64,000 nt of DNA from the NCBI GenBank assembly GCA_902500055.1, contig GCA_902500055.1_4131.1; one strand, written 5' to 3'. This document shows, in pieces, positions 8,842 to 62,466 of the stretch. This DNA is from Escherichia coli. GTDB lineage: Bacteria; Pseudomonadota; Gammaproteobacteria; Enterobacterales; Enterobacteriaceae. A model generated the notes under the pieces. The model did no database searches, was not told where the DNA came from, and was given only the letters and a program-made list of their open reading frames with translations. The stretch's first letter is position 1. Each line of letters starts with the position of its first letter. A program made the translations under genes and the position numbers.

Positions 8842-9349
8842 AGAAATCTTTTTCTTCCAGAATATCCTTTAAACTAGGAAACACTGCCATAATTTCTTCT
8901 ATATCCGATTCCATGAAAAACCCTGATGGATTATCGTAGTTTTGTAACAGATAACTGAAAGTAATAATGTAAAGAAGTTCATTAGGATTATGAATTAAAC
9001 TTAGCTGGAACATAGCTGATTCTAAATCTGATTCAGTACTAAGATCAACCCAACGTGAATTTCTATAATCAATTCGCACTTGACTTGTATTTGGATTCCA
9101 TGTGAAGCAATGTGTACCAATATGACCTATACAACCAACCCTTGTACTGTCTCCGGTATCAACACTGATATCAACAAATAGTTCAATACCGATATCGGTT
9201 GATGTTACACGACCTTTTTTCAGAAATAAATCATTATCCTTACGAAATTGTTTGGATGAAAGAGTGTCAATGATGCACATCAATGTTTTTGCAAATGCAA
9301 CACAATGACGAAATTCAAGCCTATGAAATTGGTAATCATTGATATTCAT
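8786..9349 (-). CDS. famA paralog, hypothetical protein
   Basis: 187 aa; core ESAMFQLSLIH. Confidence 0.6.
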   Translation of the reverse strand: MNINDYQFHRLEFRHCVAFAKTLMCIIDTLSSKQFRKDNDLFLKKGRVTSTDIGIELFVDISVDTGDSTRVGCIGHIGTHCFTWNPNTSQVRIDYRNSRWVDLSTESDLESAMFQLSLIHNPNELLYIITFSYLLQNYDNPSGFFMESDIEEIMAVFPSLKDILEEKDFYEDFRDLYDMHLELFKNG

Positions 9350-9888
9350 AATTCAACCCTCAATATTTTATCAGCAATTGATATAACCTTATCATTGAAT
9401 ACATTACCAATCTCAATCCTTATATACATAGCAGGTGGAATCTTTCCTTGTAGTGAATAATATGTTTGTATACCTAAGTACTCATTATCTGATAATGAAA
9501 ATTTGATTCTCTCCATATCAATGTCTGTTACTGGTAAATCTATCATTTCATAATGGTAGTCAACGTTTTCAGTGTATATTTTATCGAAGTAATTTGAATA
9601 ATCACTACTAATGTAGATGCTATCATCACGAATAATTACTTTATAATCAGAAGGTTCAAATTTATCTTTACAGGAAAAGAATGCATCATCTATTTTCTCT
9701 TCTCTTATACCGAATAACATTTTACCATCATATTTTACATCAAGAATACTACCTAGTATATTAATGGTACAATGCTCATCAATATTATGATGTAATGAAC
9801 GTTTTTTGTATTTTGGATTAATGAAAATTTTCATTAATTTTATACAAATGTCAGTAATGCATTTTACATTCTCATTTTCTATGTACAT
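9346..9888 (-). CDS. hypothetical protein
   Basis: 180 aa; no clear core. Confidence 0.5.
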   Translation of the reverse strand: MYIENENVKCITDICIKLMKIFINPKYKKRSLHHNIDEHCTINILGSILDVKYDGKMLFGIREEKIDDAFFSCKDKFEPSDYKVIIRDDSIYISSDYSNYFDKIYTENVDYHYEMIDLPVTDIDMERIKFSLSDNEYLGIQTYYSLQGKIPPAMYIRIEIGNVFNDKVISIADKILRVEL

Positions 9889-45141: not shown

Positions 45142-45483
45142 TTATTCGAAATCTTCTGGACCGGACTGATAATCATCTTCACCGTATGCACTTTCTAACT
45201 TCTCGCCAGTGTGATCATCAGTTAGTGAATCATCCTCATAATTCACGTCTACGCCTACAATGTAAAACTGGCTATCGTCTGGATCATTGAAATTAATTTT
45301 CTGAATGTTTACAATAACTGTATTGATGCCCAGGACACAGCCATCAGCCGTTACAAAGTACTGATATTTTTCACAACCGCCTGAATTGAAACCGTAATTA
45401 ATTTCGGCCCGACCATCATTTAAACGCAGTGCCTGGGCGATGATTTCATTTTCAAAGTTAGATTGAGCAATTGAGATAGTCAT
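45142..45483 (-). CDS. hypothetical protein with acidic C-terminus
   Basis: 113 aa; C-terminal ...ESAYGEDDYQSGPEDFE. Confidence 0.5.
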   Translation of the reverse strand: MTISIAQSNFENEIIAQALRLNDGRAEINYGFNSGGCEKYQYFVTADGCVLGINTVIVNIQKINFNDPDDSQFYIVGVDVNYEDDSLTDDHTGEKLESAYGEDDYQSGPEDFE

Positions 45484-45606: not shown

Positions 45607-45692
45607 GATACACTTATGCACCCGGTGGGCTAGTGAGCTATCTCTCAATGAATATATAATAGCAAAATGGCTGACCGAAGTCAACCACTTTT
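45607..45692 (+). repeat. conserved intergenic unit, copy 4 (degenerate hairpin)
   Basis: GATACACTTATGCACCCGGTGGGCTAGTGAG ... AAAATGGCTGACCGAAGTCAACCACTTTTTT. Confidence 0.55.
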
Positions 45693-45697
45693 TTCAT

Positions 45698-45832
45698 TTA
45701 TTTTTTAGCTTTCAGTACTGCCGCCTTTCGCGTCATGCCTTGCTTAATGTACTCCTTTACTTTCGCTTTACGTGCTTTCGCTTTATCTGCTTTCGTTTTA
45801 GGAGTACTGTAAATTAAACCGTTAGGATTCAT
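45698..45832 (-). CDS. small basic protein (44 aa)
   Basis: Hand-translated MNPNGLIYSTPKTKADKAKARKAK...; TAAATG junction with upstream peptide. Confidence 0.35.
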   Translation of the reverse strand: MNPNGLIYSTPKTKADKAKARKAKVKEYIKQGMTRKAAVLKAKK

Positions 45833-45922
45833 TTAAATCACCATAAAGAATAGATAGGTTACTAACAATGCCGCGATCAATGCACCGATCACCGCTGAAC
45901 TGTAATAAGCTAATGATTTCAT
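45833..45922 (-). CDS. small hydrophobic peptide (29 aa), probable single TM helix
   Basis: Hand-translated MKSLAYYSSAVIGALIAALLVTYLFFMVI; ATGA-coupled to upstream gene. Confidence 0.35.
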   Translation of the reverse strand: MKSLAYYSSAVIGALIAALLVTYLFFMVI

Positions 45923-46071
45923 TTTTTAGCCTGAAAATAATGTTTAATTTGAGCGGCGGTCAGTGCACAATTACGCAGGAAGTTTTCTGTATAACTTTTG
46001 CGAGTACTGAAAGAGAATTGACCTTTGCCGTTACCGATAGTAACATCAAACCGAGCGTTGTATTGTTTCAT
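45919..46071 (-). CDS. small hypothetical protein (50 aa)
   Basis: Track ORF trimmed to Met11 (MKQYNARFDVTIGNGKGQ...). Confidence 0.4.
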   Translation of the reverse strand: MKQYNARFDVTIGNGKGQFSFSTRKSYTENFLRNCALTAAQIKHYFQAKK

Positions 46072-46152
46072 TTTGTTTCTCCTGTTATTGGGGAGAATCA
46101 TTTCTCCCCTTCATGTAAACTATTATACAGTACTAAAAACTAATTGCAAGTA

Positions 46153-46299
46153 CTATTTTTTAGATTTACGCAAACTTTCTACCATCTCAGGAGTAAGGCC
46201 CGGCGGGTAGGAAACTACTTCATCAACGAAACGTAAAGGGAATACCCCAGCGAAAGGTGAACGTGCTTTCTTAGTATTACTCTTTTTTGATGCTTTCAT
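46153..46299 (-). CDS. small basic protein (48 aa)
   Basis: Hand-translated MKASKKSNTKKARSPFAGVF...; leader hairpin GGGGAGAATCATTTCTCCCC upstream. Confidence 0.4.
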   Translation of the reverse strand: MKASKKSNTKKARSPFAGVFPLRFVDEVVSYPPGLTPEMVESLRKSKK

Positions 46300-46368
46300 T
46301 TCATATTCCTTAATTAGTGGGGAGAATCATTTCTCCCCTTCATGTAAAACATTATACGCGTTTAAAAA

Positions 46369-46578
46369 CTAATTGCAAGTACTATTTGAAAGTAAATGCT
46401 CATACGCTGCATTAACTACGTTTTCAATAACCGACTGTACAGAAAGATCCCCCACGTCCTGGCTATAGTAGAAATCGCTTACAGTGGTGTCATCGTATGC
46501 AAATACTTTACCAGGTACGGCATCAATCACATACATATTAACCTTTAAGATGTCGATCTTATCCTGTACAGTAAGCAT
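46369..46578 (-). CDS. hypothetical protein
   Basis: 69 aa. Confidence 0.5.
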   Translation of the reverse strand: MLTVQDKIDILKVNMYVIDAVPGKVFAYDDTTVSDFYYSQDVGDLSVQSVIENVVNAAYEHLLSNSTCN

Positions 46579-61316: not shown

Positions 61317-62466
61317 ATGTTACCTTTTGTAAGAATGTTTGATTATGGGAATGAAGCACCTACCAACTCTGGGCGTTTTAAAATATATTCCAGTGATTCT
61401 ATGTATCTTCATGATACTTATACTGATAAGTTGTATGCATCTTCTGCGACGAATTGGGGTACTGGTACAGGTGTAGCATCGAGTAAATTTATTCTTTGTG
61501 CGGAGAATGTTAAACGAGTTCTATTGGAAGATAACAGTAGTGATTGTCAATTGTATGAAGAGAAAGGTACTGGAAAAGTTTTTATCACTGGTAACACGAA
61601 GGCATTCACTGGTGTAACTGATAGAAAAACTTTGTGGACGGACTGTACTACGTGGATAACATCAAGTGGTATTAATGTTTCTGATATAAAATACATGAGT
61701 AGTTTTTATGATATGAAGGTGAATTTGATAACAAACGATGGTACATTGTATTGTTGTGGAACTAACAATATATCGAACATATCATCATTTGGTGATGGCA
61801 CAAACATTAATTCTTTTAACACATTCAAAAGAGTAGATACTATAACTTCGGTTAAAAAGGCAGTTGGTAACATTTATTTGCGAGAAGATAATACTTTATG
61901 GGGTTGTGGTTTTAACTATTACTACCAGTTGGGTACTGGTAATCAAACTTCGATTACTGGGGTGACGATGATTTCTTCGGATGTTATAGATTTTGATGTA
62001 AGTTATCAGAGTACATTTTTTTATCAAATCGGATAATAATTTGTACGCATGTGGGAAGCAGTACGGAGCACAATATGGTAATGAATTTGGCACAGGTGGA
62101 ACATCTACTAGTACTGATATTCAATACAAGACTCCTACATTATTGAGTACAGGGGTATATGGTGTATATGCATGTGTTGCTAACATGGCATCACATATTG
62201 TCAAAGCAGATGAAGTTCTATATGCTTCTGGATCGAATGGGTTTGGGCAATTAGGTGTTGGTAATAATAATAATCAGTACTCCTATACTCCTTCATATAC
62301 TTCGTTTAATACTTCGTGTAATTTGGTACGCACTCCATCTGGTTCACTTATACTTACTGACACTTCGAAGTTATATTATTCGGGTGCTTCATTTGTAGTA
62401 ATGGGTGGTAGTGCTGGACAGAACGTTCTTAATTATACCGAAGTCGATATGTCATTTGTGCAGTAA
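61317..62466 (+). pseudogene. famD: RCC1-like repeat protein split by a frameshift in a T7 run
   Basis: ORFs 61317..62036 and 62041..62466 both carry RCC1-like repeats (LYCCGTNN, LWGCGFNYYYQLGTGN; LYACGKQYG, LYASGSNGFGQLGVGN); a 1-nt shift in TTTTTTT at 62016-62022 joins them. Confidence 0.5.

Follow-up and report, generated by a model that had tools for sequence, protein, structure and literature searches.

A coupled three-gene operon in the terminal repeat of Asteriusvirus jumbo phages and a candidate two-protein module at the host envelope

Here we describe three adjoining micro-genes on the minus strand of a 64,000-nt stretch of DNA (the window) that was assembled as Escherichia coli (GCA_902500055.1, contig GCA_902500055.1_4131.1). 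The genes, named orf50, orf29 and orf44 after the number of residues they encode, form a tricistronic operon in the direct terminal repeat (DTR) of about 21 kb of Asteriusvirus jumbo phages. We propose that the operon is expressed early and that the products of orf50 and orf29 work together as a module at the host envelope, a reading to which we give roughly an even chance of being correct.

The genomes of jumbo phages hold tiny early genes by the hundred, and the smallest of these are annotated inconsistently. The genes described here have been deposited as hypothetical proteins, two of them with PHROG families, and coupled micro-genes and small membrane peptides are both familiar in phage early regions; the case is a fairly ordinary one, of modest interest. 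What is new is the evidence for a genuine 29-codon gene, the recurrence of a pair consisting of a phrog_7119 gene and a transmembrane (TM) micro-ORF, and the placement of the operon in the DTR. With three genes in 374 bp, it offers a cheap and concrete test case for phage micro-proteins at the host membrane. The comparative evidence supports the re-annotation of RaK2-like and Asteriusvirus genomes and by itself reveals no new mechanism.

Genomic setting and operon anatomy

Compared with Escherichia phage vB_EcoM_phAPEC6 the region shows 98.2% identity, and with about 35 further Asteriusvirus jumbo phages (350-385 kb) it shows 91-97%; judged by this identity, the source of the window is an Asteriusvirus jumbo coliphage. 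Direct terminal repeats of 20,993 bp, confirmed by restriction digests, have been reported for phage fEgEco12 (PMC13070987). The operon occupies 9106-9488 of the linear fEgEco12 record and so lies within its DTR, which projects on the window from 55,652 (equivalent to position 1) down to about 35,056. The window sequence runs on beyond 55652, and the source assembly was therefore probably closed circularly with a single copy of the repeat. The fEgEco12 repeat holds 56 co-oriented, mostly tiny genes, one of which is annotated as 'protein spackle'. In phage Muenster, the RaK2-like homologue is located about 9 kb into a predicted terminal repeat (1-20030).

In PA5oct, a related jumbo phage of a different genus, transcription of the terminal-repeat genes is early and at a high level, and host RNA polymerase is used (PMC7318152). 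A literature search for an Asteriusvirus transcriptome found none. Because of its promoter type, its position in the DTR and the analogy with PA5oct, we infer that the operon is early and transcribed by host RNA polymerase, in line with an earlier note on this DNA that had assigned the genes to a phage early region. The pre-early genes of T5 lie in a long direct terminal repeat and are the first to be expressed. Like these and the early DTR genes of PA5oct, the operon sits in a repeat, here of about 21 kb, among co-oriented small genes with host-type promoters; the T5 genes A1, A2 and dmp have no homologues among its genes, and two-step DNA transfer is not known from Asteriusvirus.

A promoter scan placed a sigma-70-type promoter, TTGCAA-16 nt-TATAAT, at 46149..46122 on the minus strand (10/12 matches), and this is invariant in 17 relatives. 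It is a member of a family of AGTACTTGCAA-N16-TATAAT cassettes; the minus strand has 18 strict copies of them between 35.9 and 54 kb, where 0.06 would be expected. Between 35942 and 55287 (minus) the cassettes follow a common layout: (AGTAC)TTGCAA or TTGACA, 16-17 nt, TATAAT, then ..TTTACATCAA, a hairpin, about 10 nt, a Shine-Dalgarno sequence and ATG. The hairpin, which is carried by about 15 copies, is GC-rich (GGGGAGAA..TTCTCCCC). The whole resembles a mobile promoter and 5'-stabiliser module fronting nearly every small gene.

In the operon itself the 5'-UTR stem-loop (GGGGAGAAATGATTCTCCCC, 46083..46102, minus) is situated between the -10 box and the Shine-Dalgarno sequence of orf50; its RNA fold has a predicted energy of -13.9 kcal/mol (z = -3.8), and relatives show G-U-compatible changes. 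At the other end, an intrinsic terminator was detected by scan at 45691..45664 (minus; 12 pairs, UUCG loop, T-run ATTTTGC), 7 nt past the orf44 stop; it is conserved in relatives, and phage G17 has a terminator annotated at the homologous place. An Rfam scan of 44-48 kb returned nothing relevant.

The upstream neighbour is a 48-aa Lys-rich gene (46153..46299, minus) with its own cassette promoter, left unannotated in phAPEC6. There is no terminator between this gene and the operon promoter, so read-through into the operon from the promoter at 46378..46351 is possible. The sequence 5' of the operon promoter differs in 121Q, TH47, PBECO4, SD-1_S14 and Turkey3.

The earlier note had claimed three translationally coupled genes of 50, 29 and 44 aa with ATGA and TAAATG joins, and all three were recovered on the minus strand. 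The first, orf50 (46071..45919, MKQYNARFDVTIGNGKGQFSFSTRKSYTENFLRNCALTAAQIKHYFQAKK), starts with ATG at 46071, 6 nt downstream of the Shine-Dalgarno sequence AGGAGA. Its TGA is overlapped by the ATG of orf29 (45922..45833, MKSLAYYSSAVIGALIAALLVTYLFFMVI) in the sequence ATGA, and the TAA of orf29 is abutted by the ATG of orf44 (45832..45698, MNPNGLIYSTPKTKADKAKARKAKVKEYIKQGMTRKAAVLKAKK). A Shine-Dalgarno sequence complementary to the 16S 3' end, GGTGAT, stands just upstream of orf44. The ribosome site of orf29 amounts to a weak CAGG, and translation of this gene probably depends on coupling. Both junctions are invariant among the aligned relatives with intact ORFs. Overlapping coupled genes with ATGA or TAATG joins are common in phage and bacterial operons, and coupling, as read here from the sequence, would make the Asteriusvirus operon nothing unusual: its conserved ATGA and TAA-ATG have counterparts in the TAATG and ATGA of RaK2 and the TTGA of Muenster.

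A longer, 60-aa reading of orf50 from 46101 was considered and rejected. Its start falls in the loop of the 5' hairpin, and it is out of frame or stopped in G17 and Sharanji; 50 aa is therefore taken as the correct length.

Coding constraint and annotation status

The operon was aligned from 17 Asteriusvirus relatives, and pN/pS was computed in six frames for each ORF. All three ORFs are intact in 16/17 genomes, the exception being CMSTMSU, an UNVERIFIED record with homopolymer indels. The coding frame had the lowest pN/pS of the six in every case: 0.07 for orf50 (variable columns by codon position 4, 2, 15), 0.25 for orf29 (5, 2, 8; a small sample of 15) and 0.28 for orf44 (9, 8, 25). By these measures the three ORFs are real, conserved genes.

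A 91-aa antisense ORF (45868..46143, plus), which overlaps orf50 and orf29 and is annotated as a CDS in UE-S1, is a probable false call, since antisense ORFs are broken in RaK2 and in the metagenomic contig L020. The low antisense pN/pS (0.43 in the wobble-matched frame of orf29) is the artefact expected of wobble matching.

All three ORFs are annotated in phAPEC6 (gp521c, gp520c and gp519c), SD-1_S14, JP4 and fEgEco12, two of them in G17, SP27, PBECO4 and Turkey3, one in several records and none in Ecwhy_1 and Sharanji. About one in four of the close relatives examined has the 29-codon gene annotated. The view that all three fall below normal annotation cutoffs thus holds for some records and fails for others, in that four genomes annotate the full set and two of the genes have PHROG families. 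These are phrog_7119 for orf50 (full-length HMM match, E = 1.3e-27, residues 1-50 on profile 3-52 of 52) and phrog_29913 for orf44 (full-length, E = 5.6e-32, residues 1-44 on profile 1-44 of 45), both families of hypothetical proteins (phAPEC6 gp521c/gp519c, 121Q gp286/gp287, RaK2 ORF338, rV5 ORF196). The annotation of rV5 ORF196 (94 aa) appears over-extended upstream. Across other Asteriusvirus genomes, orf50 and orf44 retain 94-100% identity. A search through the main text of the paper on the phAPEC6 virion proteome found no mention of the three ORFs.

The gene products and their pairing across jumbo phages

The product of orf50 is a soluble, basic protein of 50 aa whose model suggests a small SH3-like beta/alpha fold; structural comparison of the model gave no functional match. 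A tblastn search of the phage collection returned homologues in 169 phage records, spanning Asteriusvirus, RaK2-like Alcyoneusvirus, rV5-like Vequintavirinae, CR9, Hallingskeid and KP13-7. Sixteen records labelled 'Campylobacter phage' (MG0656xx, about 137 kb) carry an rV5-type homologue with the identity seen in E. coli rV5-like phages, and their host labels look doubtful.

An assignment of orf50 to the Pfam family SAM_SMF was rejected as sub-threshold (20.5 bits vs a cutoff of 27). An exhaustive HMMER search of 1.84 billion representatives produced 5 hits, one of which, to an FG-GAP-like repeat protein, was set aside as local (orf50 residues 7-28) and uninformative. In a 347-aa bacterial protein of FG-GAP/VCBS-like type, the unit VGISNGNGTFSFS matches the N-terminal beta-hairpin motif of orf50 (VTIGNGKGQFSFSTR) five times; the likeness probably reflects convergent turn geometry.

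For orf29, a single TM helix had been predicted, and hydropathy bears this out. The best 19-residue Kyte-Doolittle window covers residues 11-29 with a score of 2.73, and summing the Hessa scale gives -3.4, so that the peptide contains a hydrophobic stretch of bilayer length and is a predicted single-pass TM helix. When the six frames of the window were scanned for ATG-initiated ORFs of 25-45 aa, 2 of the 215 reached a best-window value of 2.5 or above, orf29 among them. The other such ORF lies at 61345 on the plus strand (43 aa, MGMKHLPTLGVLKYIPVILCIFMILILISCMHLLRRIGVLVQV). The peptide has Lys2 at its N-terminus, aromatic YY and YLFF elements about 17 residues apart, and no C-terminal tail. 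By the positive-inside rule, Lys2 would predict an N-in topology.

The ORF is unbroken, at 29 aa, in 35 Asteriusvirus records; the aligned relatives never differ in its length, and every substitution among them is conservative (V/L, I/V, T/A, G/V, L/M, K/R, S/T, L/F). Matches by tblastn were limited to Asteriusvirus, with none in plasmids or E. coli genomes, and searches of PHROG, Pfam, NCBIfam and PADLOC assigned it to no family.

The last gene, orf44, is Lys-rich, as had been noted, with 14 K/R in 44 residues and a net charge of +12. Its matches are confined to Asteriusvirus, and a comparison with PDB sequences gave no match. In the AF2 model (pLDDT 81), helices span residues 14-30 and 35-43 with QGMT as the linker between them, and the N-terminus ahead of them is disordered. 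Neither helix is amphipathic: lysines lie all round, and the hydrophobic moment (0.13) is no higher than that of shuffles. This distribution of lysines argues for polyanion binding over binding at a membrane surface, and orf44 would most likely bind a polyanion, either nucleic acid or an acidic protein. The N-terminus comes in two alleles separated by an in-frame indel of 6 nt; BF17 has a 15-nt in-frame deletion, and the invariant core is KAKV(K/Q)EYIKQGMTRKAA. At the 3' end (45698-45712) the relatives have an A-run of either A6 or A5, which gives a C-terminus of ...KAKK* or ...KAKNK*; both versions stay short because a second stop lies just downstream. A reading of orf44 as a class IId cationic bacteriocin of the aureocin A53 type was rejected (16.5 bits vs a cutoff of 27, and no amphipathic helix).

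A TM micro-ORF also follows orf50 homologues in two other jumbo phage lineages. In RaK2 (L005 1650-1766), an unannotated 38-aa TM ORF (MIVKVLTTIIQYCIITGVAFVLAVAIVFSTVIVLGNIS) lies between ORF338, the orf50 homologue, and ORF339, entered through TAATG and left through ATGA. Muenster (L028, between CDS 1001-1162 and CDS 1272-1577) keeps the same 38 codons, likewise unannotated, despite 21 nucleotide changes relative to RaK2. These lead to 10 amino acid replacements, all of them conservative (pN/pS 0.46), and the ORF now starts with a TTG that overlaps a new TGA. In random-substitution trials on the RaK2/Muenster TM ORF, 4% kept both the ORF and its hydrophobicity. The TM component was uncalled in both RaK2-like records inspected (RaK2 and Muenster). 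In the metagenomic contigs L020 and L021, an orf50 homologue with 72% identity is followed by a 33-aa TM ORF, (TTG)MKKWLMLVLTYSTITITAAVMAVLAVFLFFTLI, that starts 1 nt past the stop.

The peptides were compared against composition-matched shuffles. The score of orf29 against the L020 peptide was 50 vs 24 +/- 4.4 (p = 2e-4), and that of the L020 peptide against the RaK2 peptide was 42 vs 27.7 +/- 4.6 (p = 0.008). Direct similarity between orf29 and the RaK2 peptide was not significant by the same measure, and the homology is therefore transitive through L020. The L020 peptide had no match in the phage collection. The third position is taken by orf44 in Asteriusvirus; in RaK2 and L020 it is taken by a gene for a 101-102-aa protein.

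A TM micro-ORF is absent after the orf50 homologue in six lineages (rV5-like, CR9, Hallingskeid, KP13-7, L036 and L037), and the pairing is therefore optional. In L036 the slot holds a 59-aa soluble ORF joined by ATGA, and in L037 a 28-aa Lys-rich ORF, whose likeness to orf44 (a shared KTKAD) was not significant (p = 0.11). The 113-aa gene downstream of the operon (phrog_18238, 45142-45483) has a homologue at L036 606-917, which likewise lies downstream of the orf50 homologue. The flanks thus preserve synteny, while the slot after orf50 is variable, containing a TM and a K-rich gene, a TM and a 101-aa gene, a 59-aa soluble or a 28-aa K-rich product, or nothing. Scans of IMG/VR and metagenomes added few further lineages. 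The pairing of orf50 with a TM micro-ORF is recurrent and could be mere synteny; its return directly after orf50 homologues in two other jumbo lineages suggests a peptide that is functionally linked to the 50-aa protein and not one that works independently.

Candidate function and alternative readings

On the preferred reading, host RNA polymerase would start at the cassette promoter and produce an mRNA with a stabilising hairpin at its 5' end and the intrinsic terminator at its 3' end. Ribosomes recruited by the strong Shine-Dalgarno sequence of orf50 would pass through ATGA to orf29 and through TAA-ATG to orf44, with co-production of the three micro-proteins. The orf50 protein would fold as a small SH3-like domain, and orf29 would cross the inner membrane once, as a helix with no tail, with its N-terminal Lys in the cytoplasm and its aromatic YY and YLFF belts at the two interfaces. 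The two would act as a soluble domain with its membrane partner, and orf44 would be a lineage-specific add-on, a very basic alpha-hairpin that binds polyanions. Soon after infection the orf50-orf29 module may then serve at the host envelope in host takeover or in the exclusion of other phages.

A more ambitious version, which we regard as unlikely, is that the pair constitutes an unrecognised two-component early module of Rak2-group jumbo phages, in which the peptide tethers or activates the SH3-like protein at the inner membrane and so disables a host envelope function or excludes phages. If this were true, the TM component would have been missed systematically in RaK2-like annotations.

The peptide could also act alone, an idea raised in the earlier note and still a plausible guess, as a small membrane modulator that inhibits or re-tunes a host inner-membrane protein (a transporter, a protease, the divisome or secretion) or blocks the entry of superinfecting DNA, its place after orf50 being an operon convenience. 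We consider this possible, if on balance rather doubtful. Many bacterial membrane proteins of 30-50 aa, such as AcrZ, MgtS, PmrR and KdpF, do work as modulators, and a single TM helix encoded in an early-type region would suit the role. The gene named after spackle, a superinfection exclusion protein, in the fEgEco12 repeat points the same way, as does the frequency with which orf50 homologues occur without a TM partner. However, the TM micro-ORF was seen only directly after orf50 homologues, stop/start-coupled, in three lineages, and orf29 has neither similarity to known families of small membrane proteins nor a homologue in E. coli genomes or plasmids.

That the TM micro-ORF is kept in the RaK2-like and L020 lineages, although the next gene there encodes a different protein of 101-102 aa, speaks against a reading we hold quite improbable, namely that orf29 is a translational bridge. 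On that account the gene would carry ribosomes from orf50 to orf44 and unfold the orf44 start, and its peptide would be functionless or the ORF fortuitous. The invariant length of 29 aa, the hydrophobic-conservative substitutions and the scarcity of hydrophobic ORFs (about 1% of comparable ORFs in the window) tell against it as well. It draws support from the last 20 nt of orf29, including GGTGAT, which are invariant in the DNA of all 17 genomes, from a pN/pS of 0.25 that indicates weaker constraint than on orf50, next to a likewise low value in the antisense frame, and from the many annotators who skipped the gene.

Least probable of all, and by our estimate very much so, is that orf29 is a peptide of the toxin or holin kind, by which the inner membrane would be depolarised or permeabilised. 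It is short and very hydrophobic, of a size typical of type I toxins, and the one hint of an antisense RNA antitoxin is a weak promoter-like site (9/12 matches) within orf50, at 46018-46046 of the opposite strand, a place with no Rfam hit. Yet charged and amphipathic segments are missing from the peptide, as is a hydrophilic C-terminal tail, since it ends inside the helix, and the antisense ORFs are broken in other lineages, as described above. By Pfam, NCBIfam and PADLOC it belongs to none of the type I toxin families Hok, Ldr, Ibs, TisB, ShoB and Zor, and it matches no holin family. Its setting also differs from that of a holin or antiholin: no endolysin or spanin is nearby, the neighbours are small hypothetical genes of early type, and the cassette promoter is early, whereas lysis genes are late.

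Among known systems, the closest in form are the bacterial inner-membrane regulatory proteins of about 30-50 aa, AcrZ, MgtS, PmrR, KdpF and CydX, which orf29 resembles in size, in its one TM helix, in its short positive N-terminus and in the scantness of its extramembrane sequence. It differs from them in showing no sequence similarity and in being phage-encoded and coupled to the gene of a soluble partner. T4 Imm and Sp (spackle) are much larger than orf29 and showed no homology to it; they share with it an early expression and an envelope location, both presumed in the case of orf29, and it is Sp whose name recurs in the fEgEco12 terminal repeat.
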